Counted from the stretch's first letter, positions 29,764 through 60,543 are shown. The stretch: DNA of 64,000 bases from an uncultured virus (IMG/VR IMGVR_UViG_2791355422_000001) (IMGVR_UViG_2791355422_000001), one strand, 5' to 3'. Numbers and translations are program-made. Notes: generated by a model from the sequence alone, not told the origin.

Positions 29764-29831
29764 GACTCCTCTCGCCCTCACGGTGGGAGACCGCAGGAAC
29801 GGCCCCCCACCAGAACTAACGGCATAGCCTG

Positions 29832-29909
29832 CTACTGCGTGGCGCCGCACTTACGGCACCGCGTCGCACCACTCCACTGAACCCAGTCGTGCTCACAGTC
29901 GTCGCTCAT
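29832..29909 (-). CDS. 25-aa Cys/His peptide MSDDCEHDWVQWSGATRCRKCGATQ
   Basis: GGAGGTG RBS 6 nt before ATG; too short for the ORF track. Confidence 0.6.
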   Translation of the reverse strand: MSDDCEHDWVQWSGATRCRKCGATQ

Positions 29910-30049: not shown

Positions 30050-30586
30050 ATGGCAGACGACCGCATCATCCGGACCAGCCCTCAGCGGATCAGCCGGGAA
30101 GTCTGGGAATCCGGGCGCGCCATCCAGAGCGCAGACGTCGCAGGACAGGCCCCCGACGTCACGGGAGTCCGCGTCGACGAGACCCCCGCACCCGAACACA
30201 TCGCCCAAGCACTCGGCATCGACACCGGGACGAGCGTCGTCAGGCGCAGCCGCACCTACGAGATCGACGACCAGGTGGTGCAGATGGCCACCTCGTACCT
30301 GCCGCTCGACCTCGCGCACGGGACGGCAATCACGCAAATCGACACCGGGCCCGGCGGCACCTACGCCCGCCTCGCCGAACTCGGCCACGCGCCAGCCCGC
30401 TTCGCTGAAGACGTGACCGTGCGGCCAGCCACGATCGACGAGTCCGACCAGCTCGGCCTCAGGGCCTGTGAGCCGATCATTCACATCGTGCGTACCGCGA
30501 GCGACGCGACGCGGCGGGTTGTCGAAGTCAACGACATGGTGCTGCACCCCCAGCGATACCGACTGCGTTACGAGTTCGGGGCTTAG
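30050..30586 (+). CDS. UTRA-only (GntR/HutC effector domain) protein
   Basis: VVRRSR..SYLP..GPGGTYARL..EDVTVRPAT; no wHTH. Confidence 0.8.
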   Translation: MADDRIIRTSPQRISREVWESGRAIQSADVAGQAPDVTGVRVDETPAPEHIAQALGIDTGTSVVRRSRTYEIDDQVVQMATSYLPLDLAHGTAITQIDTGPGGTYARLAELGHAPARFAEDVTVRPATIDESDQLGLRACEPIIHIVRTASDATRRVVEVNDMVLHPQRYRLRYEFGA

Positions 30587-30638: not shown

Positions 30639-31148
30639 TTAGGCGGCTTGGGGGACGTTGTTGCTCTCGCGGGTCGCCTGTCCGCCCCACTGCTGGCAGA
30701 TCTTGTGGATGGCGTTACCGCGCTTCGCCTGCCAGCCCACCGGCCAGAGGTGCTGAGCGTTGTAGCGAGGCGCCTCGTGCTTGATCGCGTAGTACTCGGC
30801 TATCTCCGCCTGTTCGCGATCTTCGAGCCAGTCGACCGTCTTCACCAGCACGTCTTTCCACCAAGGCTTGGTGTGCTTGTGGTCCTGCCAGCGCCCTTCG
30901 GGCTGGACGCCGATGCCGACGTACAGCAAGCCGTCGACTCCGATCAGTCGGTAGAGAGCGTTGGGGGCGTTCCACCCGCGCCGCGGCTTCCCGTTGTCGT
31001 CGCGATTCCAGAATCGCTCCTCGGTGGGGATGTAGAGCGCGCTCCGCGGCGACAGTTCAACGTAGTTACGGCCCGCAACTGGCTGCGCGTAGTAGGCAAG
31101 GTCGTCGTCTTGGTACATCGCTCGACGGATGGAAGTGCGTTCAGGCAT
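30639..31148 (-). CDS. GIY-YIG nuclease family protein
   Basis: LYRL..LLYVGI..RWQDH..AE..AIKHEAPRYN. Confidence 0.75.
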   Translation of the reverse strand: MPERTSIRRAMYQDDDLAYYAQPVAGRNYVELSPRSALYIPTEERFWNRDDNGKPRRGWNAPNALYRLIGVDGLLYVGIGVQPEGRWQDHKHTKPWWKDVLVKTVDWLEDREQAEIAEYYAIKHEAPRYNAQHLWPVGWQAKRGNAIHKICQQWGGQATRESNNVPQAA

Positions 31149-31195
31149 GCCGCTCCTAACGGTGCGTGTGGCGTGGGCCACTCTCACAGCACAGG

Positions 31196-31288: not shown

Positions 31289-32053
31289 TCAGGGCGTCTC
31301 GACGTGGTAGCCCATCTTGAAGCGGTGGCCCGGCTTCACCAAGATCGACACTTCGATGGGGCGTTGGTCGTCGCTGTAGACGATCCGGAAGACCTCGATG
31401 ACGGGGATGTCGCGGGGGATCTCCAGGTGCACGTACTCCTCGGTAGTCGCGGACCGTGCTGCCAGTGCATCGTCCTGCGACCGCGTGGGGTAGCCCATCT
31501 CGTTCAAGAGGGCCGGGGATCCACCCGGGATGAGCCGGCGGTCGGCCAGGCGGGTCCCCTGGGCGAGCTCAATCGGGTAGTAGGAGTGCACGAGTTCGGC
31601 AGGCTGGTCATCGAGGAAGCCGATTCGGGAGCGAAGCATCGCAGTGCCGTTCTCGTCGAGTCGCATAGCTTTAGCGACCTGCTTCGGCGGCGCCACCTCG
31701 CCAACCTTGAGCATCTTGTATTTGCCGTTCTGGTGCCGCTTGGTGGCCTCGCTGAGCCACCGGTACGGCTGCCCCGGCTCAGAGGGTGGCATGTACGACG
31801 CCGGGATGATCGTCTGTGCAGCCTTGCTGCGCACAAAGACCCCGACGCCGGTCTGACCTTCCAGGAACTTCTCGTCCTTGAGGATCTGGACCGCGCGCTG
31901 CACGGTGACGTTGGAGGTCGAGTACTGCTCGGTGAGCTTCGCGTTGGTGGGAACCCGCATGCCGGGCTCCCACTCGCCAGACATGATCTGCTGCCGAATC
32001 TCGGCCGCGATCCGTTCGGCGAGAGGGCGCTTGTCCTCGTGAGCGTCGGGCAT
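31289..32053 (-). CDS. GntR/HutC regulator (KorSA/TraR-like)
   Basis: wHTH (IAAEIRQQIMSGEW.PG..PT..GVGVFV) + UTRA; divergent from transfer operon. Confidence 0.9.
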   Translation of the reverse strand: MPDAHEDKRPLAERIAAEIRQQIMSGEWEPGMRVPTNAKLTEQYSTSNVTVQRAVQILKDEKFLEGQTGVGVFVRSKAAQTIIPASYMPPSEPGQPYRWLSEATKRHQNGKYKMLKVGEVAPPKQVAKAMRLDENGTAMLRSRIGFLDDQPAELVHSYYPIELAQGTRLADRRLIPGGSPALLNEMGYPTRSQDDALAARSATTEEYVHLEIPRDIPVIEVFRIVYSDDQRPIEVSILVKPGHRFKMGYHVETP

Positions 32054-32054
32054 G

Positions 32055-32585
32055 TCAGTCGACCTCAATCTCATAGCGGAAGCGCCGTGGCGCCTTCATG
32101 AGCATCAGTGAGACCTCGAACGGCTTCCCGTCCTCGGCTTGAGTGGTGCGCAGCAGCTGGAGGATGGATGCGCCCTCAGGGAGAGCTAGGGCTGTGCGCT
32201 CGGAAGGTGCAGCCTCTCGGAGTTCCAGGTCTTCAGTGACCTGTCGGGCGCGGTAGCCGAGTTCCGCGAGAAGGGTGGGCGCCCCACCCTTGATCTTCTT
32301 CATCTCAGCGAGTGCAGTTCCCTGCGCTACGGCTGCCGGGTAGTACGAGTCCGCGAGCTCGATGACCTCGCTGTCGAGGAGGATCGCTCGCCGTCGCACA
32401 TAGGCCTGCTCGTCGGTGTCGAGCTTCAGGGCTCGGGCGACCTCTGGAGGGGGTGCCACCTGGGCGACTTCTACGAGGCGCTGCCCTCCCCGCTTCCCAG
32501 CCTCCTGGGTCCAGGTGTCGCTCTGTCCGTCGGCGCGGGGCTTGATGTAGGCCACCGAGCTCTCGCGCCAGCGCTTCTCAGCCAT
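32055..32585 (-). CDS. UTRA-only protein
   Basis: VRRR..ELADSYYP..GGAPTLLAELGY; lacks wHTH. Confidence 0.8.
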   Translation of the reverse strand: MAEKRWRESSVAYIKPRADGQSDTWTQEAGKRGGQRLVEVAQVAPPPEVARALKLDTDEQAYVRRRAILLDSEVIELADSYYPAAVAQGTALAEMKKIKGGAPTLLAELGYRARQVTEDLELREAAPSERTALALPEGASILQLLRTTQAEDGKPFEVSLMLMKAPRRFRYEIEVD

Positions 32586-32689
32586 CTTCGGTCGCCCCCT
32601 TGATCGTTGGATGTGCATCCTGACCTCACACCTTAATCCCTTGATGATTACAGGTGTCTGTGTGGGACTGGCCAAATCCATGTCGCCAT

Positions 32690-32720
32690 GCTTGATAGCT
32701 TATGCATTAAGCCTTAATGG
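32690..32720 (+). promoter_or_regulatory. Promoter/operator copy 2
   Basis: GCTTGATAGCTTATGCATTAAGCC, near match to reverse complement of 31202-31226. Confidence 0.55.
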
Positions 32721-32755
32721 TTGCTTCAGATGCGAAACCCGCGATCGGAGGCGCA

Positions 32756-32959
32756 ATGCTGCGAGTTCGAGACGTCGCGACGCACTTCCGAGTGCACCCG
32801 GCGACCGTCTACCGATGGGTCAAGCAGGGCCTCCTGCCTGCGTATAGGCACGGCAAGCCCTACAAGCCCGGTGACGGCCCCCCGGGTGGCGCGATCCGTA
32901 TCCCTGAGTCCGTCCTCGACGAGACGGCCCTCCCGACTACCGATGACGAGGTGGCTTGA
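32756..32959 (+). CDS. Excisionase-type HTH protein
   Basis: LRVRDVATHFRVHPATVYRWVKQGLLPAYR. Confidence 0.85.
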   Translation: MLRVRDVATHFRVHPATVYRWVKQGLLPAYRHGKPYKPGDGPPGGAIRIPESVLDETALPTTDDEVA

Positions 32960-32960
32960 G

Positions 32961-33821
32961 ATGCCCACCGCAACCCCCACCCCTGCCCTCACCNNNNNNN
33001 NNNNNNNNNNNNNNNNNNNNNNNNNNNNNNNNNNNNNNNNNNNNNNNNNNNNNNNNNNNNNNNNNNNNNNNNNNNNNNNNNNNNNNNNNNNNNNNNNNNN
33101 NNNNNNNNNNNNNNNNNNNNNNNNNNNNNNNNNNNNNNNNNNNNNNNNNNNNNNNNNNNNNNNNNNNNNNNNNNNNNNNNNNNNNNNNNNNNNNNNNNNN
33201 NNNNNNNNNNNNNNNNNNNNNNNNNNNNNNNNNNNNNNNNNNNNNNNNNNNNNNNNNNNNNNNNNNNNNNNNNNNNNNNNNNNNNNNNNNNNNNNNNNNN
33301 NNNNNNNNNNNNNNNNNNNNNNNNNNNNNNNNNNNNNNNNNNNNNNNNNNNNNNNNNNNNNNNNNNNNNNNNNNNNNNNNNNNNNNNNNNNNNNNNNNNN
33401 NCCCCACCCGGCCGCCCCTTATTCCCCGGTCGCCGAGGCGGAGCGTGTGACGCGCCTGGAGGCGGCTTCCCGCCTGATGGCCAGGCCGACCTACTTCTTC
33501 CTGCCGGGATGCCTGTGCCAGGACGGTGCTCTTGCGGTCCGCCAGCTGGAGGGCGTGTCGCTGCTGCTGGCCCGTGAGGGCTGGGCGCAGGGCGAGATGC
33601 GCACGTCGTCGGGCTGGTGCCTGGTTGGTGCGCTCAACGAGGTCGCCGGGGAGGCTTCGCTCGGTACGGCCTGGTGGCTGCTGCACCTGATGGTTGCCGC
33701 CCGGTCCGGGTTGGATGCCATCCCTGTCTGGAATGACGTGCCTGGCCGGACGTCTGCCGAGGTGCTGGAGCTGGTGGCGGACGCTGTCGAGTTCGCCCGC
33801 ACCTGGAAGGCGATGCAGTGA
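32961..33821 (+). CDS. DUF6197-like protein (spans N gap 32994-33401)
   Basis: GWAQG..CLVGAL..IPVWNDVPGRT. Confidence 0.55.
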   Translation: MPTATPTPALTXXXXXXXXXXXXXXXXXXXXXXXXXXXXXXXXXXXXXXXXXXXXXXXXXXXXXXXXXXXXXXXXXXXXXXXXXXXXXXXXXXXXXXXXXXXXXXXXXXXXXXXXXXXXXXXXXXXXXXXXXXXXXXXXXXXXXXXXPHPAAPYSPVAEAERVTRLEAASRLMARPTYFFLPGCLCQDGALAVRQLEGVSLLLAREGWAQGEMRTSSGWCLVGALNEVAGEASLGTAWWLLHLMVAARSGLDAIPVWNDVPGRTSAEVLELVADAVEFARTWKAMQ

Positions 33822-34060
33822 TGTCCACCCCGACCATGTCCGCCGCTGACATCGCCGCGCACGTCGAGGCACAGGGTCCGGTGCGCCGGGTCCGGCCGCC
33901 GAAGCCGCGGCGCACGGTCCTTGAGCGTTTCCCTGCTGGTGGTCCGCGCGGCTCCTGGCCTGCGGAGGAGTTCGCCCGTGACCGGCGTCGTGAGGGTGTT
34001 CCGGCGGAGGTCCTGATGGATCTCGCGTCGGACAGCTTCCTCGTGATCGTCGCGGCCTAA
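33821..34060 (+). CDS. Hypothetical protein
   Basis: TGATG coupling. Confidence 0.65.
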   Translation: MSTPTMSAADIAAHVEAQGPVRRVRPPKPRRTVLERFPAGGPRGSWPAEEFARDRRREGVPAEVLMDLASDSFLVIVAA

Positions 34061-34149
34061 CCCCCCTGATCGCCGCGGGCGGCGGATGTTTCGGCCCCTC
34101 CCGATCCTGCCGCCCGCGGCTCCACTTCTTGATCCTCGAAGGGATCGTC

Positions 34150-34389
34150 ATGTCTCCGTTCCTGTTCGACGCCGATTTGGGTGTCACCGGGCTGGGTCTG
34201 AGGGCCCGCTCGTCGGCCACGGTCGCCGATGTGTCCGACGCCTACGCGGCGCAGTTGATCGGCGAGTACCGCGATGCGGTCGCGGCCGGCCGTCTCGACG
34301 TGATGCAGCTGATCCGGGATCACGCTGCGGCGATCGACCCGCTGCTGCTGGACGAGCTCGACGGCTTCGACTACCCGGCGGCGGCGTGA
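34150..34389 (+). CDS. Hypothetical protein
   Basis: RBS + ATG after hairpin A1. Confidence 0.6.
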   Translation: MSPFLFDADLGVTGLGLRARSSATVADVSDAYAAQLIGEYRDAVAAGRLDVMQLIRDHAAAIDPLLLDELDGFDYPAAA

Positions 34390-34523
34390 TGTTCGGCCGT
34401 CGTACCCCGGAGCAGTTGGCTGCTGCGGACAACGTGCGCCGTGCGAAGCGGCGCGGGAAGGACGCGGCCGACCTGGCCAGGCGCCTGAAGGCTGAGACGG
34501 ACGCTGCGGCGAAGCGCCGCTAG
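34389..34523 (+). CDS. Small basic protein
   Basis: TGATG coupling. Confidence 0.5.
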   Translation: MFGRRTPEQLAAADNVRRAKRRGKDAADLARRLKAETDAAAKRR

Positions 34524-34614
34524 CCCCCTGATCGCCGCGGTGGCGGGATTGCCCATTCATCCCCCACGGCTCCCGCCACCGCGGTCCATCCACCTACCGA
34601 GAGACAGGACAGCC

Positions 34615-34836
34615 ATGTCGGACTCACAGCACGAGACGCCGCAGATCGCCCTGCACTGGGCGGCCGTCGCCGTCGGTCTCGCCGAGGCCCGGACCGCCAA
34701 GGGCATGCCGCTCACCGACGAGGAGCGCGTGCACTTCGACCGCTACCAGCAGAACGCCTACGACCACGGCTTCTCGGAGGAGCAGGTCCGCGGCTACCTC
34801 GACAACACCCTGCGTCCGGCGATCGCCGCCGACTGA
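34615..34836 (+). CDS. Hypothetical protein
   Basis: AGGA RBS after hairpin A2. Confidence 0.6.
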   Translation: MSDSQHETPQIALHWAAVAVGLAEARTAKGMPLTDEERVHFDRYQQNAYDHGFSEEQVRGYLDNTLRPAIAAD

Positions 34837-34929
34837 CCCCAGCCCTTGCCCGGCCACCACGGGCGTATGCCGCAAGTGCAGGCAAGGGCGCGCACCACAT
34901 CCATTCAATCGATCACAGAGGAGTACGTC

Positions 34930-35109
34930 ATGGGCTGGGACCACGTGCGGAACGAGCCGATCTCCGAGGAGAACACGCAGGAAGTGCTGGGAGGCCTGTC
35001 GGCTGCCGCGCAGGCTGCGGAGCTGTCGGGTGACTCCATGTACGCGGAGGCGTGCCACCGCGAGATGAACCGAGAGCTGGATGAGCTCGACGGCCTGAAG
35101 GGCCGCTGA
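34930..35109 (+). CDS. Small acidic protein
   Basis: GAGGAG RBS after hairpin B1. Confidence 0.6.
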   Translation: MGWDHVRNEPISEENTQEVLGGLSAAAQAAELSGDSMYAEACHREMNRELDELDGLKGR

Positions 35110-35112
35110 CCG

Positions 35113-35565
35113 ATGGCCGGGGCGATCGTCGCCGCCGTCGCCGCGCTGGCGGGTGTGCTGTTGCAGGCGCTGATCGGCGGGCGGCGGGCGCGTGCGGAGC
35201 GGCGCCGGGCCGAGTTCGTCGACACGGTCCGCGGCGTGCTGGCGGCGTATGTCGAGTTCCGCAGCGAGCAGTACCTGAAGATCGCCGCCCGGCGTGAGGG
35301 GCACGGCGACAGTGACGAGTCGCGCCGGGCCCGCTATGCGGCTCGCAGTGCGCTCACCGCGGCGATCGACGCCCTGTACACGGCCACCGACGACCAGCAG
35401 CTGCTGGCGGCAGCCGAGGAGGCCCGCGAACTGGCGGTGGCCCTCGGCGATGCCGCCCCGGCCCCGGGCCAGGTCGACGAGACGGCGGTCGAGGAGATCG
35501 GGCAGCGCGCCCGCGAATCCCACTCCGACCTGCGTCAGGCCGCGCACAAGGCCCTGCACCACTGA
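35113..35565 (+). CDS. KilB-like protein
   Basis: N-terminal TM, basic segment, AARSALTA; recalls pIJ101 KilB architecture. Confidence 0.5.
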   Translation: MAGAIVAAVAALAGVLLQALIGGRRARAERRRAEFVDTVRGVLAAYVEFRSEQYLKIAARREGHGDSDESRRARYAARSALTAAIDALYTATDDQQLLAAAEEARELAVALGDAAPAPGQVDETAVEEIGQRARESHSDLRQAAHKALHH

Positions 35566-35659
35566 ACGTTCAGCCCCGGTGACCTGCCGCAAGGGCGCCC
35601 GATCGACTCGGGCCCGGGGCGTGCACCACAACCATTCACCGATCCGAGAGGAGCCCGTG

Positions 35660-35839
35660 ATGGGCCTGTTCAACCGCACCGACAAGCAGTGCGCGCAGGA
35701 ACTGGTGGCCGCGGCGATGGTCACGAAGGACGCGGACGAGACCGCCCGGGTGATCCGGCAGAAGGGGCTGACGCAGGAGGAGATGGCCCGGGGCGCCGCG
35801 TACATCCGTTCCGGCAAGCGGGTCACCGGCCGCGGCTGA
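35660..35839 (+). CDS. Small protein (MGLFNRT..)
   Basis: GAGGAG RBS after hairpin B2. Confidence 0.6.
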   Translation: MGLFNRTDKQCAQELVAAAMVTKDADETARVIRQKGLTQEEMARGAAYIRSGKRVTGRG

Positions 35840-35918
35840 CCGGCTCTTCCGTCCCTCGCGGCTTGGGCCGTGGGGGAGCGGTGGAGCCGGGACAGCCCCG
35901 GCCCGGAAAGGAGCCCTG

Positions 35919-36095
35919 ATGGGCCTGTTCAGCCGCACTCGCGCCAACGACGCCTTCGAGCCCCCGGAGGGCGGCGGATACCCCGTCACCGACCCGCACG
36001 GAAACGTCAGCTCGTGGCACGACACCAAGAAGTCCGCGAAGGCCGAGGCCAAGCGCCTCAACGAGGCCATGGACGCCGCCAACAAGCGCCGCTGA
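35919..36095 (+). CDS. Small protein (MGLFSRT..)
   Basis: AAGGAG RBS after hairpin C1. Confidence 0.6.
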   Translation: MGLFSRTRANDAFEPPEGGGYPVTDPHGNVSSWHDTKKSAKAEAKRLNEAMDAANKRR

Positions 36096-36121
36096 TCACC
36101 CCAAAACGAGAGGAGCACGCC

Positions 36122-36241
36122 TTGGACAAGTACACGACCGACAGCGGCAGCGAGGTCGAGATCGAGGACGACGGCGATGGCGACTTCACCGTCACCTTCT
36201 CGATGACGGCGCCTGCGCCGGACGACAGCGACGAGGGCTGA
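36122..36241 (+). CDS. Very acidic 39-aa peptide
   Basis: GAGGAG RBS + TTG. Confidence 0.45.
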   Translation: MDKYTTDSGSEVEIEDDGDGDFTVTFSMTAPAPDDSDEG

Positions 36242-36253
36242 CCGGGAGCCCTG

Positions 36254-36424
36254 ATGGCTGGAGACAGCAAGAACGACGAGTGGGAGCGGCACGCCGAAGA
36301 GCACAACCGCGAAGAGGGGGTGGTGGCGAACTTCTTCGGGTTCGGAAAGGGCGGTGAGATTTGCGCCCGCTGCTACAGGGCGGCCTACGGCTGCAACCCC
36401 CCGCCCAAGAGGGAGTGGTGGTGA
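36254..36424 (+). CDS. Small hypothetical protein
   Basis: GGAG RBS; stop overlaps next GTG. Confidence 0.5.
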   Translation: MAGDSKNDEWERHAEEHNREEGVVANFFGFGKGGEICARCYRAAYGCNPPPKREWW

Positions 36425-36789
36425 CCGGCATGCCATACCAAGGGCGTCTGTCGACGGGCCTGTTCAACGACCGGCAGATCCGCGCGAAGGAGTTCAACCG
36501 CTGGGATCAGTGCCACTCCGCGTTCACGCGCGGCAAGCGCCGGGAGATCGTCGACGGGTACAAGGCCGAGATCACCAAGCGCGGCGGGCCGAAGCAGCCG
36601 ATCTGGCTGGACGTCGACGACGCGACCGGCCACGTGTACATCGGTGACGGCCACCACCGGGCTGTCGCGCTCATGGAGTTGGGCGTCACAGAGTTCGCGT
36701 TCCACTGGCGCTCGTGCGCGAAGGGCGGCTGGTTCACCATGCCGCCGCTGGAACGGGAGACCTTCCCCTTCCACCTGCTCAGCCTCTGA
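36421..36789 (+). CDS. ParB/Srx N-terminal-like protein
   Basis: KQPIWL..IGDGHHRAVALMELG. Confidence 0.7.
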   Translation: MTGMPYQGRLSTGLFNDRQIRAKEFNRWDQCHSAFTRGKRREIVDGYKAEITKRGGPKQPIWLDVDDATGHVYIGDGHHRAVALMELGVTEFAFHWRSCAKGGWFTMPPLERETFPFHLLSL

Positions 36790-36864
36790 CCGGCTGCCTG
36801 TCCCGTCCGTCTCGCACGGGCGGGGTGGGGAGCCGGGGACAGTCCCCGGCCCAGGAAGGACGCC

Positions 36865-37026
36865 ATGCCGAAGAAGTCCGTGAAGCAGGACGGCATCCAG
36901 GAGTACCGGACCAACGGCACCAAGCGCTACGGCTACGTGAACGACCCGGACAACGTGGCCTTCGACACCCGCGAGCAGGCCGAGCAGCGCAAGAAGTCCC
37001 TGGACAGCCGCTTCCGCCGCAACTGA
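36865..37026 (+). CDS. Small basic protein
   Basis: AAGGA RBS after hairpin C2. Confidence 0.55.
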   Translation: MPKKSVKQDGIQEYRTNGTKRYGYVNDPDNVAFDTREQAEQRKKSLDSRFRRN

Positions 37027-37054
37027 TCACCCCCACCGATGAAGGGAGGCCGCC

Positions 37055-37267
37055 ATGCGGCCCCGATCCTGGCTGCTGCTGGCGGCCTTCCTGTTCCTGA
37101 CCGGTATCTGCCCGCCGATCGCGTCGCTGCTCGGCGGCACGGCCGGCCTGGCGGTCGCCGGGGCCGTGGAGCTCCTGTCGCAGCCACCGCTGCTGGGCCT
37201 CGCCCTCGTAGTGCTGGCCGTCACCGCCTACCGCCGCCGTCCGGTCGTCCCCCCGGGGAGGGCCTGA
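37055..37267 (+). CDS. Small membrane protein (Spd-like context)
   Basis: Largely hydrophobic; GGAGG RBS. Confidence 0.65.
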   Translation: MRPRSWLLLAAFLFLTGICPPIASLLGGTAGLAVAGAVELLSQPPLLGLALVVLAVTAYRRRPVVPPGRA

Positions 37268-37470
37268 TGCCGGTCACGTTCCGCAAGAGCTACCGGATCT
37301 TCCCCGGCGTCCGGCTCAACATCAACCGGCGCTCGTGGTCGGTCACATTCGGCGGCGGCAAAGGCCCACGCCACACGATCTCGTCGACCGGACGCCGCAC
37401 CACATCCATAGACCTGCCCGGCCCCTTCGGCTGGCGATCCACCCGCACCCGACGCAACCGAGAGGACTGA
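37267..37470 (+). CDS. DUF4236-like protein
   Basis: FRKSYRIFPGVRLNI..G..T..LPG. Confidence 0.8.
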   Translation: MPVTFRKSYRIFPGVRLNINRRSWSVTFGGGKGPRHTISSTGRRTTSIDLPGPFGWRSTRTRRNRED

Positions 37471-37475
37471 TCACC

Positions 37476-37697
37476 GTGAGTCGCTACCTCGAAGAGGCCG
37501 CCGCCCTGCTGCGCAAGTCGGCCGAATCTAACGAGAAGCAGAACAACGCAAAGGACTACCGCATCGACTCTCTTATGGAGGGCCGAGAGCGGATCGCCCG
37601 GCAGTTCGCCACGCTCGCCGCCATCGACAAGGGCCTGCTGCCCGCCGACATCACGGCGGACGTAGTACGCGCCCTGACGGAAAGGGCGGAGGCCTGA
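37476..37697 (+). CDS. Hypothetical protein
   Basis: GAGGA RBS + GTG. Confidence 0.6.
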   Translation: MSRYLEEAAALLRKSAESNEKQNNAKDYRIDSLMEGRERIARQFATLAAIDKGLLPADITADVVRALTERAEA

Positions 37698-37698
37698 C

Positions 37699-37887
37699 AT
37701 GCGTGTCCTCGACCTCGCCGCGATACCGCCTGCCGGTGCCGCTACCTACGGCACGATCGTCGCCCTTCAGCACGCCGGGATGTCGGAGCGGCCCGCGCAC
37801 GCTCTCGGAGCCGTCGCGATCATCCTCTACCTCGCGCTGCTGACCACGCTCATCGACCGCGTGACCACACGCCGGACTGGGGCGTGA
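37699..37887 (+). CDS. Small membrane protein
   Basis: Two hydrophobic segments. Confidence 0.6.
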   Translation: MRVLDLAAIPPAGAATYGTIVALQHAGMSERPAHALGAVAIILYLALLTTLIDRVTTRRTGA

Positions 37888-37888
37888 C

Positions 37889-38104
37889 ATGCGCTTCCTC
37901 GGCTTCATGACCCGGCTCTACTCGCTCGGCCCCGCGCTTCTGATCGTCGGCTCGTCTATCGGGGTCGCCCTCGTGGCAGACCTGGCGGCACGGACAGCGG
38001 GAGCCCCCGACCTGATCGCCAAGGCCATCGGCCTTTTCGCGTCCGTCATCACCGCCTGCGGGGTCGCCGTACTCATCAACCGCCGCACCGCCGTGCGCGA
38101 CTGA
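37889..38104 (+). CDS. Small membrane protein
   Basis: Two hydrophobic segments. Confidence 0.65.
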   Translation: MRFLGFMTRLYSLGPALLIVGSSIGVALVADLAARTAGAPDLIAKAIGLFASVITACGVAVLINRRTAVRD

Positions 38105-38119
38105 ACCCCTGAAAGGACC

Positions 38120-39463
38120 TTGCACGTCATGACCGTCAGCCCGCCCCAGACGAACGGCCACAAGCGGCCGACCATGCCCGTGTTCGGGGACTGGCGGCCC
38201 ATCACAGCCACCCCCGAGCCCGCCGAGGAACAGAGCATCCGCGAACCGGCCGCCGACAGCACGCCGGACGAGGTCGTCTCAGCCCAGGCCGAGGTCATTC
38301 GCGCGCAGGCCTGGGCCGATGCCGAAGGGCGCCGCATCAAGGCCGAGGCGGAAGCCGAAGCCATCAGGATCAAGGGGACGGAGGAGGCGCGCAAGCTGCG
38401 GCTGGCCAACGACAAGGCCGAACGGCGAGCCGCCGAAGATGCGGCTGCCAGCCAGGCCCGCATCGCCGAGCTCCATCGCAAGCGCGACGACACCGAACGC
38501 GCCCGCGAGGACGCTGCCCGGCAGGCCCAGGAGCAGCAGCGAGCCGAGGCCCAGACGGCCGACGAGGTCAAGGATGCTGACGCCAAGTGGCGCTCCTATG
38601 CGATCAAGTTCGCGGTCGTGTGCGGCATCGTGTCGCTGCCCGTGCAGATGTCGTTCTTCTGGAACCCGCGCGCGCCCTGGATGGCCGCCACCCCCGTCAT
38701 GCTCGAAGGCGCCGCATGGGTCGTCCACCGCGGGGCGCGAGCTGCCGCCGTGAGCAAGCGGCCGGTGTGGCACTACCGCACGATCGTCTGGTTCCTCGCC
38801 TCCGTTGCGGCGGGCGTCAACCTGTACCACGGGCTGCATGCGTTCGACGCGGGCACGGCCATTGCGACCGCGTTTGCTTCTGTCGCCGGCCCCGGCGTGT
38901 GGGATCTCCACGAGCACGGCCGCATCCGCAAGCGCGACGGCACACTGACACGACGCGAGCGGAAGGCGCAGGAGAAGGCCGCCAAGGCCGCAGCCAAACA
39001 GCAAGCGGCCGAGGAAGCCCGGCGGGTCGCCGAGAAGGAGGCCGCCGAGGAAGCTGCCGCCGAAGCCGCGACCCAGCTGGCCGCACGGCGGGCGAAGCAG
39101 TTCCCGAAGGTGTGGGAGCACGCGGAAAAGCTCGCCACAGACCTCGGCGAGACCGAAGTGACCCAGGCGATCTGGGAGCGCGCCAAGCTCGACGTCGAAG
39201 GCGCCAAGCCCGGCGAATCCGCCGACATCTACCGCATGCGCAACGCCGCCGAATCGAGGGTCGCAGCGGCCCGCGAGAAGCGCCCCGTAAACGGATCATC
39301 GGCGCAGGCCGCATCGCAAGTGCCCGGGAGCAAGCGGAAGCGCATCTACAACCCGCCCGCGCGCCGCGGAGTACGCCGACCGGGAGACGTCACCTACACC
39401 CCGGGTGCCCGCCGCCAAGCCTCCATCGCAGCACGCAACGCCGCCTCGAAGAAGAAGGACTGA
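38120..39463 (+). CDS. SpdB2/DUF2637-like membrane coiled-coil transfer protein
   Basis: Coiled coil, ~4 TM segments, coiled coil; directly upstream of TraB. Confidence 0.7.
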   Translation: MHVMTVSPPQTNGHKRPTMPVFGDWRPITATPEPAEEQSIREPAADSTPDEVVSAQAEVIRAQAWADAEGRRIKAEAEAEAIRIKGTEEARKLRLANDKAERRAAEDAAASQARIAELHRKRDDTERAREDAARQAQEQQRAEAQTADEVKDADAKWRSYAIKFAVVCGIVSLPVQMSFFWNPRAPWMAATPVMLEGAAWVVHRGARAAAVSKRPVWHYRTIVWFLASVAAGVNLYHGLHAFDAGTAIATAFASVAGPGVWDLHEHGRIRKRDGTLTRRERKAQEKAAKAAAKQQAAEEARRVAEKEAAEEAAAEAATQLAARRAKQFPKVWEHAEKLATDLGETEVTQAIWERAKLDVEGAKPGESADIYRMRNAAESRVAAAREKRPVNGSSAQAASQVPGSKRKRIYNPPARRGVRRPGDVTYTPGARRQASIAARNAASKKKD

Positions 39464-39471
39464 GACCCGTC

Positions 39472-41565
39472 ATGGCCACCCCGCTGAAGGACGCGCGCCC
39501 GCCGCTGACGCTCGTGAAGAACGCCCCCGCGGCGCCAGCTCCGCTCGTCGTCGAGAAGCGCCCGCGGGCCGCCTGGATCATGTCCCGCACGGAGCTGCGC
39601 CAGCGGATCGTGTACACGTGGGACAACGCCGTCGACTGGTGCATCCACCACGCCACGCACTCGCCGTACTACCTGGGCTGGTCGGTGCGCGGCTACCGGC
39701 GCCTGTGCCTGTTCTGGTGGAAGGGCCACCACGACGGCTACCGGCAGCAGATCAAGACAGCGAAGCTGATGCTGAAGCAGGCCGAGCAGCTGCCGCGCGG
39801 CGAGGCGCGGGCGGCGGCCGAGGCGAAGGCGCGGGCGATCCTGGACGTGCGCCGCGCCGAGTACCGGGCGCACAAGAAGAAGTACTGGATCCGCACCGGC
39901 ATCAGCGGTTTCACGGCCGCCGTCGGCGTGACGGTCGGCGTCACGGCCGGGGCCTGGTGGGTGCAGGCGCTGATGGTGATCGCCGCCATCTGCACCGGCG
40001 CCTACTTCGGCCGGCCCGACGAGCCCGTCGTCCAGCCGGTCCAGGCGCCCACCCGCACCTCGCACCTCGGCGAGGAGACCATGCGGCGGGTCCTCGTCGA
40101 GGCCGGTGCCGTCCCGGAGAAGCGGGGCGAGGAGATCCGCGGCGTCGGCATCCCGCACACGGAGGGCCCCGGCATTGCCTATGCGGTACACCTCCCGTCC
40201 GGCATCCCTGCCGCTGTGGCGGTAGCGAAGAAACAGCAGATCGCGGCTGCGATGGCCGTCCACTCCGATTGGCTTGACCTTGGCGTCGGCAGTGTCGAAA
40301 CGCTGCTGCTGGTCTGGGTGGCCAGCGAAGACCCGTTCGGTGTCGTCCGCCCGTCGCCCCTGCTCGACCACAAGGGGCCGACCAACACGTTCCTCGACGG
40401 CGTCCCCGTCGCCTTCGGCAAGCGCGGGAACCCGATCATCCTGCACGTCCGGGACACCAGCCTGATCGTTGGCGGAGCCACCCGTCGCGGAAAGGGCATG
40501 CTGCTCGCCAACATCCTCATCGGAGCTGCCAAGGACCCATGGGTCAACATCCGCATCTTCGACGGCAAGGGTGCCGCCGAGCACAACCCCTACGCGCCGA
40601 TCATGGCGACGTTCGTCAAGCGCAACCCCGAACGGCTCGCCATAGCCAGCCGCATCATCAAGGACGAAGTCGACCGCCGCTCCGACCTCCTCGACGACCA
40701 TGGCCACGAGAAGATCGACGACGACAACTACGAGGAGGTCATGAAGCTCCTCGGCGGTCGAGAGGTCTTCATCTGCGATGAACTCGCCACCTATACCCCT
40801 AGGGGAACCAGCCCCTGGGACGACGAGATCACCGAGAACCTCTCCCAGATCGCCGCCGTAGGCGCTGCCGTGGGGGTGCTGCTGATCAGCCTCACACAGG
40901 TGCCCGAGGTCGCCGTCATCCGCGGTCGGCTCCGTCAGAACCATGTGGGTCGGGCCGCCATGAACACCGAATCCGGCACCGCTTCGAACACGATCCTCGG
41001 CGACGGCATGACCGGCCAGGGCTACGACGCTTCGAAGATCCCCCTTGACCAGCCGGGCCGCTTCTGGCTCGCCACCCCAGAGACCGGTGTCATTCAGGGG
41101 CGCTCCTACCTGGTGAAGCCCGACGACAAGCGCAAGGTAGTTGCCGAGGCCTACAGCATCCGTAAAGTCGCCGGGCGACTGCCAGGTCAGTGGCGCGACC
41201 TGATCGAGGAGCAGCTCCTTGATGAGACCGGAGTCTCGTCAGTTGCGGGCGGCCAGGGCGGCAAGGGGCGCATTGGTTCCGCTCCGATCGCGCTGACCCT
41301 GCTTGATCATCTCATTGACGCTGCTGCGGCAACCGGACGAGGTGAGGCGACCCGCGCCGAGGTGTTCGCACACCTCGCGACGGTTGATCAGCGGTACGGC
41401 TACCGCGTGGATGAGACCGACGCGCAGTACAACTCGCGGGTCGGCAAGCTCCTGGCCGCCGCTATGGCCGCCGAAGGCCTCGACATCAAGGCCGTGAAGG
41501 TCTCGACGGCCGAGGGCAAAGAGTCTCGGGGGTTCAGGCTCGGCGACCTCACTGCCGCCCAATAA
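39472..41565 (+). CDS. traB: FtsK/SpoIIIE-family conjugative translocase, TraB-like
   Basis: N-terminal TMs, Walker A GATRRGKG, DGKG, Walker B FICDEL, C-terminal wHTH ending GFRLGDL. Confidence 0.85.
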   Translation: MATPLKDARPPLTLVKNAPAAPAPLVVEKRPRAAWIMSRTELRQRIVYTWDNAVDWCIHHATHSPYYLGWSVRGYRRLCLFWWKGHHDGYRQQIKTAKLMLKQAEQLPRGEARAAAEAKARAILDVRRAEYRAHKKKYWIRTGISGFTAAVGVTVGVTAGAWWVQALMVIAAICTGAYFGRPDEPVVQPVQAPTRTSHLGEETMRRVLVEAGAVPEKRGEEIRGVGIPHTEGPGIAYAVHLPSGIPAAVAVAKKQQIAAAMAVHSDWLDLGVGSVETLLLVWVASEDPFGVVRPSPLLDHKGPTNTFLDGVPVAFGKRGNPIILHVRDTSLIVGGATRRGKGMLLANILIGAAKDPWVNIRIFDGKGAAEHNPYAPIMATFVKRNPERLAIASRIIKDEVDRRSDLLDDHGHEKIDDDNYEEVMKLLGGREVFICDELATYTPRGTSPWDDEITENLSQIAAVGAAVGVLLISLTQVPEVAVIRGRLRQNHVGRAAMNTESGTASNTILGDGMTGQGYDASKIPLDQPGRFWLATPETGVIQGRSYLVKPDDKRKVVAEAYSIRKVAGRLPGQWRDLIEEQLLDETGVSSVAGGQGGKGRIGSAPIALTLLDHLIDAAAATGRGEATRAEVFAHLATVDQRYGYRVDETDAQYNSRVGKLLAAAMAAEGLDIKAVKVSTAEGKESRGFRLGDLTAAQ

Positions 41566-41574
41566 GTCCCCTTT

Positions 41575-41721
41575 GACCCTGTCCGGTGCGGGCGATATGG
41601 GGTAGTTCATCCAATCCTGCACCCTGTTCCGGCCGTGCCCGTACCGGGGCAGGGTCTGCCGGGACAGCGCCCGTCGCCGGGCACTGTCCCGGCAGGGTCC
41701 GACCTGCGAAAACGCAGGGTC
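41575..41721. repeat. clt/TRS-like 8-bp repeats
   Basis: GACCCTGT, CACCCTGT and 3 x GCAGGGTC (=GACCCTGC) plus hairpins after traB. Confidence 0.5.
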
Positions 41722-41774
41722 CGGGCACGTCCAAGGTCACGGTCGAAGGCTTAGTACAGGACAGAGGGAAGTGC

Positions 41775-42434
41775 ATGATCAGCAACCACGCGAGCCGCTG
41801 GGTCTATCTCATCGGCTCCGCTCTGAGCCGGCCGGTGAAGATCGGCGTGACGGGTAACGTCCAGGGCCGACTCGACGAGCTCCGCACTGGGTCCCCAGTC
41901 CCGCTTCACGTCATGTGGAAGACGAAGGGCGACCGCGATCTGGAGTACAGCCTGCACGAGTACTTCGCCCCCTATCGCATCCACGGCGAGTGGTTCGACT
42001 TCGGCGACGAAGATCCGTCCGCGCTCGTTGCGACCGCCGCCGTACTCATGGGGCACCTGACCCACCCGCAGCGCGTGTCCGAGCGGAGTCGACTCCGGGT
42101 CGTCCACAACATCCTACGAGCAGACGAGACAACGGTGATCGGCCACCTGATCGACGCCGCATCCGCGACAGGCGCGGAAGTCGTGAGCAACGCCCAAGCG
42201 TTCGCCTACCTGGCCACCGTCATCCCCGCCTACACACGCTCGGAGGGGGAGGGCGAGTCTCAGTACAGCTCGCGCGTCGGATCGCGACTGGCCAAGGCGC
42301 TAAGGGAGGAACGCATCGATCTGCGCCCCGTGAAGGTGTCGCTGCCAAACGGCAAACGCGTCATGGGCTACCGACTCGCCGATCTCAAGCGAGCCCTCGC
42401 CGAACGGTACGAACGCCGGGGGAGGCGCCCCTGA
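41775..42434 (+). CDS. GIY-YIG (T5orf172/MUG113-like) nuclease fused to TraB-like C-terminal domain
   Basis: VYLI..VKIGVT..RL..L.TGSP..E..LH..F..GEWF; C-terminus aligns with TraB tail. Confidence 0.8.
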   Translation: MISNHASRWVYLIGSALSRPVKIGVTGNVQGRLDELRTGSPVPLHVMWKTKGDRDLEYSLHEYFAPYRIHGEWFDFGDEDPSALVATAAVLMGHLTHPQRVSERSRLRVVHNILRADETTVIGHLIDAASATGAEVVSNAQAFAYLATVIPAYTRSEGEGESQYSSRVGSRLAKALREERIDLRPVKVSLPNGKRVMGYRLADLKRALAERYERRGRRP

Positions 42435-43078
42435 TGCTCACCGTCAAGATCCAGCAGATGACGATCGACGGGCACCCCTACGAGTGCCCCGAGTGCGGCT
42501 CCGAGGCCTTCTCTCTCGACGGCACCGGGTTCATCGATGCGCTGCCTGTCCGCGGGAACTGCTGGCAGTCCCACAGCTGGGAAGAGCCGCTCATCACGCT
42601 CGGAGCCCTCCGCCAGATCCGCGCATCGAGCACCGGCCGCGAACGGGCCACGGACACCGACACGTTCGAGATCACCGTCGGCGGTGCGGTCCTCGCCGGA
42701 ACCCTCCACCCGGAGGTCACCGCCGACGACCTCAAGCAGGCGGGCCGCGTGTACTGGCGGCGGATCGCCAAGCCGGCCGCGCGCCGGAAGAAGCGCGAGG
42801 CCGTGCGCGCCGTGACGCAGCCCGTCAGGAAGGCGGCGAAGAAGGCGACTCGCGCTGTCGCCGGGGCTGCTGACGAGGCGGTCGCTACCGCCAAGGCCGC
42901 GGCCGTCGGGGCGGCCTGGAGTCTGCAGACCGGCGAGCCCGACCCGGACTACACGCCTGAACCGATCAACCCGTGCGGGGCCTGCAGGGGCAAAGGCGAA
43001 TTCAAGATCGACTCCCACCTGCACGACGCAACGACCGTCCGCTGCTCCGTTTGCTTCGGCATCGGCGAAATCGACTAG
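42434..43078 (+). CDS. Zn-finger hypothetical protein
   Basis: CPEC; CGACRGKG..CSVCFGIG. Confidence 0.7.
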   Translation: MLTVKIQQMTIDGHPYECPECGSEAFSLDGTGFIDALPVRGNCWQSHSWEEPLITLGALRQIRASSTGRERATDTDTFEITVGGAVLAGTLHPEVTADDLKQAGRVYWRRIAKPAARRKKREAVRAVTQPVRKAAKKATRAVAGAADEAVATAKAAAVGAAWSLQTGEPDPDYTPEPINPCGACRGKGEFKIDSHLHDATTVRCSVCFGIGEID

Positions 43079-43088
43079 GAGACCCGTC

Positions 43089-43589
43089 ATGTCCAGCCCG
43101 CTGCCCGAGCGGCCCCCGATCCACGCCGCACCGGCGACTGGACAGGCCGCCCTCTCCGACGCGGTCATCGAAGCCGCCATCGCCAACGCCATCGAGCAGG
43201 CCAAACGCCACGGCACCAGCCCGCAGGCCGTCATCGGCACCACCCCGCCCGTCGCCCAGCCCGGCATCCCGCCCATGACGTTTCGCGAGACCCAGATCGG
43301 CCGCGTGGCCCTCTATGGCGGCGCGGGGGTCAGCCTGCCGATTCTGGCCGGCGCGGTCTTCATGGTCGCCACAGAGCACGCGAACCCTGCAGTCATTGCC
43401 TGGGGAGTAGGCGGCATCACCGCCCTGTCCCTGCTGGTCGCCACCTTCGGTTACCTCGTCAAGCGCATCGTCGCCGCCGCCTCGCCGCCCGAGGTCCACA
43501 ACCACATTGCGGGCGACGTCTACCAGGACCAGCGCCAGACCCACAGCAAGAACATCGGCATCAACGCCAAGACCAACAACCAGCAGTGA
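43089..43589 (+). CDS. Two-TM protein, SpdD-like context
   Basis: Pro-rich N-terminus, 2 TM, VHNHIAGDVYQD tail. Confidence 0.65.
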   Translation: MSSPLPERPPIHAAPATGQAALSDAVIEAAIANAIEQAKRHGTSPQAVIGTTPPVAQPGIPPMTFRETQIGRVALYGGAGVSLPILAGAVFMVATEHANPAVIAWGVGGITALSLLVATFGYLVKRIVAAASPPEVHNHIAGDVYQDQRQTHSKNIGINAKTNNQQ

Positions 43590-43600
43590 AGGGAAACGAC

Positions 43601-43882
43601 ATGATCACCGAAACGATCGACACCACCGAACTGCAGCAGCAGGCGGTGTACCTGCTCGTCCAGTCGAAGATGGCCGACCGGGCGGGCGCGAACCCGGCCG
43701 AGTGCCCCGTGCACCGGAAGGCGCGGGCGGCCGTGGAGGCGGCCGTCGCCGCCGGGGCATCCCACACCGACATCCACCGCGAGGCCGGCATCCAGGAAGC
43801 TATCCACGTCCTGTCGTGCCAGCTGCCCGGCTACGAGCCGGCCATCGACTACGACGGCACCCGTTACGGGGTCGCGGCCTGA
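43601..43882 (+). CDS. Hypothetical protein
   Basis: RBS + ATG. Confidence 0.6.
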   Translation: MITETIDTTELQQQAVYLLVQSKMADRAGANPAECPVHRKARAAVEAAVAAGASHTDIHREAGIQEAIHVLSCQLPGYEPAIDYDGTRYGVAA

Positions 43883-43893
43883 GAGGAGACGAC

Positions 43894-43989
43894 ATGGACA
43901 ACGAGTGCCAGCTCTGCGGAGCACCCGGCGGATACCCGTACTGCAACGCCGCTTGCGAGGCCGCCGACAACCCTGAAGAAGAGGATTGA
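43894..43989 (+). CDS. 31-aa 4-Cys peptide
   Basis: GAGGAG RBS; CQLC..YCNAAC. Confidence 0.45.
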   Translation: MDNECQLCGAPGGYPYCNAACEAADNPEEED

Positions 43990-44059
43990 TCTGCATGCGC
44001 TCAACCGGCCCCGCCGCCAACTACGGCTACGAGCCGCAAGCCGCCTGACCCACACGAGC

Positions 44060-44092
44060 GCGCCCCCGGCAAGGATCAGTTGCCGGGGGCGC
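44060..44092 (+). terminator. Hairpin ending transfer operon
   Basis: GCGCCCCCGGCAA..TTGCCGGGGGCGC. Confidence 0.65.
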
Positions 44093-44125
44093 CGTGTTGA
44101 GCGTATAGGTGCGGTGAGGAAACGT

Positions 44126-44163
44126 GTCGCCCCCTCACCTGCCCCAGCAGGTGAGGGGGCGAC
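44126..44163 (-). terminator. Hairpin ending nuclease-immunity operon
   Basis: GTCGCCCCCTCACCTGC..GCAGGTGAGGGGGCGAC. Confidence 0.65.
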
Positions 44164-46005: not shown

Positions 46006-46455
46006 AGCTCTCTCCCCTGTGAACCTGAAAGCGCACGCTTTCTCCCCCGGCGCATGCCTGATAGCCGAGCGCTCAGGTGCGGCGCTCAGCTGTCGAAACT
46101 TGATCACATCGGTCACAGTGGGGTCAAAGGAACTTCACAGCTTTGGCGAGTTCGGGATGCCGCGATTCTCTCCGTGGCAACTGCCGAGGGCGCCCGGTAG
46201 GCCTGAACGCGCCCTGCGGAAAGGCTGGATACCTCTGCCGCGGATGCCCCGGCCGGCCGGTCCGAGCGCCATCGCTGGAGAATGTCCGCGACCTATGCGC
46301 CGAAGCCAGCCAGAGGGCGCCGCATCGAGCCCCAGCCTCGCCGACAGGGCTGGGGCTCACGCATTCGAGTGTGCCATTGGCCCACCCCTGTCAACCTCTC
46401 GTGCACAATTGGCTCAAGTCTCACCCTGCTTCCCGCGCCACCCGAGGAGCCTGCC

Positions 46456-60522: not shown

Positions 60523-60543
60523 TGCTGAAGGGGGGTGACGGCC

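Follow-up and report, generated by a model that had tools for sequence, protein, structure and literature searches.

A candidate TraB/clt transfer module in the genomes of large temperate Streptomyces siphophages

Introduction

Gene flow by phages and gene flow by conjugative elements are usually treated as distinct routes. A 64,000-nucleotide (nt) stretch of DNA from an uncultured virus in IMG/VR (IMGVR_UViG_2791355422_000001), read on one strand and hereafter called the window, raises the question of whether a single genome can hold both routes. Among its temperate-phage genes lies a locus for TraB, the FtsK-like double-stranded DNA (dsDNA) translocase of Streptomyces plasmids, and a preliminary description of the region had proposed a plasmid-type conjugation module inside a prophage, that is, a phage-conjugative hybrid. 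In the plasmid systems, TraB hexamers are described as recognizing 8-bp TraB recognition sequence (TRS) repeats in the clt locus and moving dsDNA, the TRS of pSVH1 being given as an 8-bp repeat (PMC4170104). Examination of the window and its relatives makes it probable that the locus is a resident, GntR-controlled TraB/clt transfer-and-spread module of temperate Streptomyces siphophages of ~60–94 kb. Judged from gene content, movement of such a phage by conjugation as well as, or instead of, in virions is a reasonable inference.

The window has a G+C content of ~69%, and both ends of the element lie outside it. Since lists of open reading frames (ORFs) were swamped at this composition, genes were called with a likelihood script based on codon-position G+C (GC3). 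The called products were compared with Pfam (98 products) and PHROGs (50 products), and NCBIfam was also searched.

TraB and the clt-like region

The question turns on one gene and the non-coding region that follows its stop codon:

39472–41565 (+): TraB, FtsK-like dsDNA translocase, uninterrupted 697 amino acids (aa); Pfam, PHROGs, AlphaFold/Foldseek
41566–41774: clt-like non-coding region of 209 bp; repeats, inverted repeat and conserved box

The preliminary description had called TraB intact and FtsK-like, and this was borne out by the uninterrupted 697-aa frame, by a Pfam FtsK_SpoIIIE (PF01580) score of 25.1 bits against a cut-off of 24, and by the match of its modelled fold to FtsK motors. 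In PHROGs the protein belongs to phrog_1358, 'FtsK/SpoIIIE-like' (E 5e-34). In the AlphaFold model, for which 40 relatives were used, pLDDT averages 77.5; the motor (residues 200–590) is modelled well, and there are a long N-terminal helix (111–178) and a compact C-terminal helix-strand domain (610–697). A hydrophobic transmembrane (TM)-like segment at 153–171 lies inside that helix according to both the hydropathy script and the model, consistent with N-terminal membrane association, and the C-terminal domain is modelled as H-E-H-H-E-E with block pLDDT values of 87–91 from residue 611. Foldseek gave the FtsK motor on dsDNA as the best PDB match (6t8b, E 3e-16, TM-score by target 0.67), followed by the FtsK proteins of E. 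coli and P. aeruginosa, the pCW3 coupling protein TcpA and EccC/EssC; phmmer against PDB sequences returned only FtsK at E 0.012. The P-loop residues G335, R338, G340, K341 and G342, the Walker B residues D436/E437 and the residues T475/Q476/P478 are invariant in all 40 aligned relatives, and the TQxPE motif aligns with ATQRPS of FtsK. Taken from sequence and model, TraB is predicted to be an intact FtsK-type motor.

The repeats that had been reported downstream of traB were likewise recovered. Four GACCCTG sites follow the stop codon, at 41575(+), 41650(−), 41693(−) and 41715(−), together with an 18-nt inverted repeat at 41656–41695. These four sites fall within 147 bp (41575–41721) out of 15 in the window, where 14.2 would be expected by chance, meaning that the clustering alone is unusual. 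Between the variable repeats stands a GACCTGCG box (41701–41708), which is also present 103–177 nt 3' of the traB stop in 18 of 40 relatives against a background of 0.027 per 300 nt. Of the 40 relatives, 38 carry a 7-mer in three or more copies (up to eight) in the 320 nt surrounding the traB stop; of the remaining two, L035 has a top 7-mer present three times and no other cluster, and the contig of L044 ends 59 nt into the region.

The repeated word itself varies among relatives (GACCCTGC, ACCCCTGAC, GTCCGACC, CAGACCT, CCCGTGATG, CCTGGGAC and others), and it tracks the C-terminal domain of TraB. The seven loci with the TraB C-terminus nearest to that of the window (52–78 of 88 residues identical) contain four of the five loci with at least three GACCCTG sites. 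In L008 and L021, the motors are 74–75% identical to the window TraB, the C-termini cannot be aligned with it, and the repeat is CCCGTGA instead. The association of C-terminal likeness with the repeat gave a Mann-Whitney p of 0.014, a statistic that ignores relatedness. This pairing would be the expected behaviour of a clt whose TRS repeats are read by TraB, and the 209-bp region is therefore proposed as a candidate clt.

The tra operon and its regulators

The following features precede traB:

30050–30586 (+): UTRA-only GntR paralog without a helix-turn-helix (HTH) domain; Pfam UTRA E 1.2e-25
30639–31187 (−): GIY-YIG endonuclease-like gene; phrog_3312 E 5.2e-15, Pfam GIY-YIG E 6e-4
31289–32074 (−): full-length GntR/HutC regulator; Pfam GntR E 1.5e-15 and UTRA E 1.3e-18
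32055–32681 (−): second UTRA-only GntR paralog, no HTH domain; Pfam UTRA E 4.1e-19
32994–33401: run of 408 N, a real, unread gap covering part of the divergent promoter region
33447–38104 (+): thirteen small co-directional ORFs; gene calls, with DUF6197 at 33447–33821 (Pfam)
38120–39463 (+): DUF2637/SpdB2-like protein of 447 aa, immediately 5' of traB; hhalign, homologs in relatives

This layout agrees with the preliminary description in several respects: a GntR/HutC regulator with both GntR and UTRA domains on the minus strand, a small-gene operon running in the opposite direction, small genes for TM proteins, and the 408-N gap. The plus-strand genes form an unbroken run from 33447 to 43882, divergent from the regulator. 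The regulator also resembles the NCBIfam HutC-like model (E 5e-24, under that model's cut-off) and is 28% identical to the GntR protein adjoining the tra genes of plasmid pZL1, making it a candidate Kor/TraR-like repressor of the tra operon. The UTRA-only product of 30050–30586 aligns with residues 62–244 only of a related GntR protein from an uncultivated virus genome; its homologs in the related viral genomes G001 and G002 are full-length and lie directly upstream of the tra operon, co-directional with it. A promoter and terminator scan of 31–46.5 kb returned counts at chance level and was uninformative.

The hydropathy script marked four small proteins of the operon as TM-like (35113–35565, 37055–37267, 37889–38104 and 43089–43589), and the genes at 34129–34389 and 35113–35565 have homologs in relatives. 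The listed DUF6197 call aside, the small ORFs matched no family in NCBIfam or in Pfam at E≤5, and the earlier label 'KilB-like' could not be confirmed, as a match to it came from no tool used. The ORFs of 33447–38104 are candidate spread (Spd-like) genes.

The 447-aa protein had been described as SpdB2-like, in line with its profile comparison. A profile of this protein and its G001 homolog aligned by hhalign with the DUF2637 protein that precedes traB on pZL1 (probability 96.6%, E 5.9e-10), and it matched no family in Pfam at E≤5 or in NCBIfam. Homologs of 32–52% identity stand upstream of traB in relatives. Its language-model neighbours in the Atlas include a cluster named 'putative SpdB2' (score 0.86), which serves as a lead only.

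Position in the phage genome, distribution and phylogeny

Phage genes flank the module on both sides:

1–1299 (−): tyrosine integrase, cut by the left edge of the window; Pfam Phage_integrase E 6.7e-17
13315–15885 (+): PrimPol/D5-type primase-helicase, phage replication gene; Pfam D5_N E 2.7e-28, Prim-Pol E 4.1e-9
60535–61026 (+): TerS, small terminase; Pfam Terminase_7 E 4.7e-32
61285–62931 (+): TerL, large terminase, with an in-frame TGA at 61516–61518 in the P-loop region
62928–63998 (+): portal protein, cut by the right edge of the window; phrog_104 E 3e-101

The left 27 kb form a temperate-phage early region with the integrase, an HTH_17 gene, a protein with a P22_AR_N domain, DnaN, a PD-(D/E)XK nuclease, PrimPol/D5 (which contains a 25-N run at 14901–14925) and LuxR-type regulators. 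With integrase, DnaN and PrimPol/D5 on the left and TerS, TerL and portal on the right, the block does sit between phage early and late regions, as first proposed. Pfam, PHROGs and NCBIfam detected no integrase or Rep family over 27–47 kb, and no flanking att-like direct repeats were found in 24–50 kb of the window. In these scans the block thus has neither an integrase nor att ends of its own; such features, together with excision of the block alone, had been named beforehand as refuting the hybrid reading. At the record ends of G002, no shared stretch longer than 14 nt and no tRNA were found.

The module recurs in 14 viral records of IMG/VR, with TraB proteins 42–75% identical to that of the window. 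Eight of these records are proviruses, two have direct terminal repeats and four are linear, and CheckV rates ten of them at least 86% complete. In 11 of the 14, traB is followed at a distance of 5–24 kb by a TerL-like ORF of the same strand, one of these matches being weak (G012, 14.6 bits); in G003, G009 and G013, none was found with probes homologous to a few terminases. Ten of the records yielded a tyrosine integrase, always at least 21 kb from traB. The slot of the module is kept across at least three terminase/portal types among the 14 records.

Two of the relatives are especially informative. G001 (85,278 bp, with a 127-bp terminal repeat and a TraB 74% identical to that of the window) is a complete temperate siphophage carrying integrase, repressor/cro, DnaB, recombination genes, TerL, portal, capsid, tape measure, holin and endolysin, and its module, GntR–434 aa–TraB–phrog_19266, lies 7 kb upstream of TerL. 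The window portal found no match in G001, whose terminase and portal families are unrelated to those of the window. G002, a 94,301-bp provirus with a TraB of the same 74% identity, runs colinear with the window through the early, tra and late regions, from 4.9 kb as far as the portal, and the two portals are 91% identical.

Outside IMG/VR, isolated-phage genomes contained no close TraB and only three weak matches, in Bacillus and Geobacillus phages. In PLSDB, 55 plasmid records matched TraB at no more than 42% identity, 51 of them from Streptomyces; since 49 of the 55 are typed non-mobilizable by MOB-suite, TraB-type transfer escapes that typing. A single-protein scan of genome contigs found no relative, and an alignment-based scan found 28 TraB loci in Streptomyces, Kitasatospora and Streptacidiphilus, which were judged on 10-kb flanks with homolog probes. 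On the suggested survey for TraB beside terminase genes, four of the 28 loci have terminase or portal homologs in the 10-kb flank and six more have other genes of the phage family, and the remaining 18 yielded no phage marker there with these probes, indicating that the wider TraB family also lives outside phages.

In a maximum-likelihood TraB tree of 42 rows, which omits L027, L041 and L044 for being short or duplicate, the window TraB falls in a 15-row clade (SH-aLRT 100) together with 11 IMG/VR rows and three genome loci with phage markers. The plasmid TraBs of pZL1 and CP075612 fall in other clades. As the window TraB belongs to a phage-context clade apart from these two plasmid proteins, the module is not a recent plasmid import, and this clade together with the slot shared among viral records argues that it is a long-standing resident of the phage lineage.

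Comparison with pZL12, plasmids and AICEs

The plasmid-phage pZL12/phage ZL12 was reportedly described by Zhong et al. 2010, J Bacteriol 192:3747. The pZL12 record (GQ919031, 90,435 bp) has the order GntR(−), 79c–74c, membrane protein 73c, 72c (766 aa), FtsK-like 71c, 70c (phrog_19266) and TerS/TerL/portal. Passages in the literature present it as a well-characterised plasmid with phage particle proteins (PMC4487206) and report that its conjugal transfer needs the tra gene and its neighbours (PMC3583192). Both elements are large temperate tailed phages in which a GntR gene diverges from a tra operon upstream of TerS, TerL and portal, and the window thus shares with pZL12 the defining combination of tailed-phage late genes and a GntR-controlled FtsK-like tra locus. 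Since pZL12 matches this architecture and has published conjugal transfer, neither the layout nor the idea of a phage-conjugative hybrid is new.

The differences are nevertheless substantial. The FtsK-like protein of pZL12 belongs to another clade (phrog_31069) than the window TraB (phrog_1358), and it keeps a canonical GKT P-loop where the window has GKG. The window TraB and a homolog 88% identical to pZL12.71c on NZ_CP108705.1 align by BLASTP at E 0.12 only and are not orthologous. Whereas pZL12 is kept as a ParAB plasmid, the window has an integrase and PrimPol/D5, with no ParA or ParB family found by Pfam in the part of the element that it covers; neither ParA/ParB maintenance nor a tra gene of the pZL12.71c clade, the two further marks of the pZL12 type, was seen. 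The tra genes of pZL12 lie directly upstream of the terminase, in contrast to ~19 kb of other genes between traB and terminase in the window, and blastn found no similarity between the window and pZL12.

Two circular Streptomyces 'plasmids' of 88–92 kb have portals 88% identical to that of the window. One of them, NZ_CP108705.1, is a pZL12 relative carrying ParAB, a type III polyketide synthase, a full virion gene set and an integrase. Gene order is colinear with it for eight window genes, among them some to the left and some to the right of the tra slot, which there holds a 717-aa protein 88% identical to pZL12.71c (phrog_31069, 'FtsK/SpoIIIE-like'). With the same slot in 14 viral records and in pZL12, and with no integrase, Rep or att of its own found in the scans, the block belongs to the phage genome and does not integrate independently, in agreement with the hybrid reading of the preliminary description.

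The Streptomyces plasmid TraB-clt systems (pSVH1, pIJ101, pZL1, CP075612) resemble the module, which likewise has short repeats near an FtsK-like TraB gene, putative GntR-type control, Spd-like membrane proteins, and a TraB that carries a membrane segment and, as predicted, a domain for DNA binding at its C-terminus. By tblastn, the window TraB is 38–42% identical to the plasmid proteins. On pZL1 (NC_023316), the order is GntR(−), small genes, DUF2637 protein and FtsK-like gene, and this shared order, taken alone, would suggest plasmid import. The window differs in its carrier, a phage genome that has terminase and portal genes, in the separate TraB clade noted above, and in the repeat, which is GACCCTG in the window, CCCGGAC in CP075612 and CCTGGGAC in pZL1.

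Integrative and conjugative elements of actinomycetes (AICEs) such as pSAM2, SLP1 and pMEA300 have, by the accounts in PMC3218068 and PMC2440964, an integrase, a Prim-Pol-type replication protein, an FtsK-domain Tra and a GntR (KorSA-like) regulator, all of which have counterparts here. The operational criteria of Ghinet et al. 2011, as given in PMC3218068, are Int, Rep (RepSA, RepAM or Prim-Pol) and FtsK-domain Tra, with int not between rep and tra. The window holds an integrase (1–1299), a Prim-Pol/D5 protein (13315–15885) and TraB (39472–41565); the element can therefore be scored as an AICE, which means that the categories overlap. The best-characterised AICEs are put at 10.9–17.3 kb (PMC2440964), unlike the window element, which exceeds 64 kb and carries TerS, TerL and portal, and Pfam found no Nudix/Pif gene in the window. 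Among the papers listed by the literature searches, judged from titles, abstracts and some passages, none described TraB inside prophages beyond pZL12. What is new here is a distinct phage-specific TraB clade, an element with an integrase instead of ParAB, and a TerL with an in-frame stop.

State of the large terminase gene

The in-frame TGA in the P-loop region of TerL has no counterpart in L019 and L025, which read through at that point. A Logan contig of run X1 covers 61434–61985 with zero differences from the window; given this agreement, the TGA is not an artefact of the deposited assembly, with the reservation that X1 may be the source sample and not an independent strain. Run X2 yielded only diverged parts from a relative. 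A genuine stop would make the packaging of DNA impossible in this copy and leave TraB as its only exit route. The virion route may thus be closed in this copy, and the stop fits the 'instead of' virions part of the inferred dual transfer.

A separate observation was made on the X1 assembly, which over TerS/TerL (60.8–62.0 kb) splits into pieces of 296, 260 and 552 nt. The word depth of these short pieces is 438–465, compared with 376–408 for the long pieces (50.3–56.7 kb and beyond 62.0 kb). Another related copy within that genome may lie behind both the depth and the fragmentation.

Proposed mechanism and alternative explanations

A transfer pathway can be proposed for the module, in which repressor control, clt binding and actual transfer are extrapolated from its gene content and from the plasmid systems. 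The GntR/HutC repressor would keep the long operon off and, on derepression, the operon would yield the small membrane proteins, the DUF2637/SpdB2-like protein and TraB. Membrane-anchored TraB, an FtsK-like protein, would then bind the 7–9-bp repeats (clt) just 3' of traB through its putative C-terminal winged-helix domain and pump the circular double-stranded phage genome into a neighbouring hypha. Finally, the Spd-like proteins would carry the genome across cross-walls and the phage integrase would fix it in the recipient. This pathway builds on observations of gene content, fold, conserved motifs and position, on a TraB clade of phage context, and on the correspondence of repeat and recognition domain across relatives.

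Several points weigh against it. The window holds neither end of the element, so that any junctions of an integrated copy lie outside it, and the 408 N mask part of the divergent promoter region. The order of the GntR paralogs is unlike that in G002 and G001, and this copy may therefore be rearranged. The Walker A motif of TraB reads GATRRGKG and not the canonical GxxxxGK[S/T]; the Gly after the Lys is found in 40 of 40 relatives and likewise in the plasmid TraBs of pZL1 and CP075612. Its invariance marks GKG as a conserved clade variant and not a sign of decay, yet the ATPase activity of TraB cannot be assumed from FtsK on account of it. The assignment of residues 610–697 as a winged-helix-like domain comes solely from the secondary structure of the model. 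L024 has GACCCTG repeats with a TraB C-terminus unlike that of the window, and the repeats may in part serve the following gene as promoter or operator. In addition, the 18 genome loci mentioned above showed only tra genes or nothing with the probes used.

Three other explanations were considered beside a resident transfer module. The FtsK-like protein and its neighbours may serve the phage without cell-to-cell conjugation, in spread of the infecting or induced genome within one mycelium alone, in partitioning of an extrachromosomal prophage into compartments or spores, or in exclusion of other elements, an explanation regarded as unlikely. Isolated phages of Streptomyces and Thermobifida (Hiyaa, Galactica, Spocter, Keanu and P1312) carry genes from another FtsK-like clade whose sole annotation is 'FtsK-like DNA translocase', PHROGs files both FtsK-like clades under 'moron / host takeover', and the non-canonical GKG and the adjoining nuclease-domain protein with a TraB-like DNA-binding domain would also suit such a role. 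The locus nevertheless has the full plasmid-type set of GntR, DUF2637-like protein, TraB and repeats after the stop, and the tra locus of pZL12 is cited as required for conjugal transfer (PMC3583192). Because intramycelial spread and conjugation of plasmids are described as sharing the TraB machinery (PMC4170104), a role within the mycelium overlaps with transfer instead of excluding it.

Insertion of a plasmid or AICE, or its remnant, into the prophage, without relation to the phage life cycle, is improbable. Among annotated relatives, those closest to TraB do belong to plasmids of Streptomyces (42% for the best of 55 PLSDB records, as opposed to three weak matches in isolated phages), and mobile-looking genes (GIY-YIG, T5orf172) and truncated GntR paralogs are present in the region. 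Against an insertion stand the scans without integrase, Rep or flanking direct repeats, the same slot in 14 viral records of at least three terminase/portal types, the TraB clade of phage context only, and flanking genes colinear with G002 on both sides. That the whole element is a decaying prophage, with the module an inert relic in this strain, appears the least probable of all; the TGA in TerL, absent from relatives and repeated in the X1 Logan assembly, and the two GntR paralogs without an HTH domain point that way, whereas TraB, the 447-aa protein and the small ORFs show unbroken frames of high GC3, every invariant motor residue is kept in TraB and the clt-like repeats are intact.

Streptomyces TraB is reported to mobilise chromosomal DNA as well, via clt-like sites (PMC4170104), and a widespread group of TraB prophages would accordingly add a virion-independent and host-range-independent route for phage genomes of 60–94 kb, perhaps for host genes too. 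Such elements would be claimed by prophage finders as well as by AICE finders. With recognition domain and repeat varying in pairs, the relatives form a natural collection in which DNA reading by TraB can be studied. The phage TraB clade has at least 15 members with several unrelated terminase/portal types, and a broader proposal, put forward tentatively and more doubtful than the module itself, is that temperate phages of mycelial actinomycetes generally follow a strategy of dual-route transmission that has no name as yet, in which the clade is inherited with the backbone, and the C-terminal domain and the clt repeats are swapped as a cassette around the conserved TGACCTGCG box. On that proposal, the phage genome could colonise the mycelium and arrive in new hosts as naked dsDNA, and copies without packaging, as the TerL of this one suggests, would persist as oversized AICEs, which would make such prophages a possible source of AICEs.

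Genes downstream of traB and other features of the window

The remaining features of the operon lie between the clt-like region and its end:

41775–42434 (+): MUG113/T5orf172 (GIY-YIG-like) nuclease-type domain joined to an 88-aa copy of the TraB C-terminal domain; Pfam MUG113 E 7.7e-14
42434–43078 (+): 214-aa protein with C-terminal Cys pairs, conserved directly after traB in relatives
43089–43589 (+): 166-aa protein with two TM-like segments; phrog_19266 E 1.6e-20, hydropathy
43586–43882 (+): last small ORF of the operon; gene call
44060–44092 and 44126–44163: two perfect GC-rich hairpins between the operon and convergent minus-strand genes

The 88-aa domain of the first of these proteins is 48% identical to the TraB C-terminus by BLASTP (E 7e-20). 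A full-length homolog was found only in L024 (9983–10630, 42% identity), right after traB there, and the other relatives, including G001 and G002, have no such fusion after traB. With its TraB-like recognition domain, the protein could target DNA that carries clt, that of rival elements for instance. The 214-aa protein shows 31–68% identity in relatives and 30% in plasmid CP075612; it matched no Pfam family above the cut-off, and no Atlas neighbour scored above 0.79. The 166-aa protein matches pZL12.70c and NZ_CP108705.1 by tblastn and is, apart from the GntR regulator, the only gene of the tra slot with a match in pZL12. The hairpins at 44060–44163 likely mark the operon end.

Several genes outside the operon were also observed. 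Convergent on the operon end, 44698–46116(−) encodes a 472-aa protein with a C-terminal NucA/NucB DNase domain, possibly a secreted DNase beside a dsDNA-transfer module. Among the accessory genes left of the regulator, 28975–29850(−) is an APH-family phosphotransferase-like ORF (Pfam APH E 2e-7, partial), for which the NCBIfam resistance models gave no match. Between the tra block and the terminase, 52363–54864(+) encodes a glycosyltransferase, an S-adenosylmethionine (SAM) methyltransferase and an NAD-dependent sugar epimerase, with homologs in G002, L028, L034 and L036. A tRNA-Tyr called by ARAGORN at 51509–51590(−) lies within and antisense to the ORF 51225–52067, which has phage homologs (phrog_14065 E 1.5e-45; 71% identity in G002), and is probably a false call. 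Directly 5' of TerS, 60193–60522(+) is a 109-aa Prim-Pol fragment-like gene (phrog_8643 E 1.5e-26), distinct from the large PrimPol/D5 gene.

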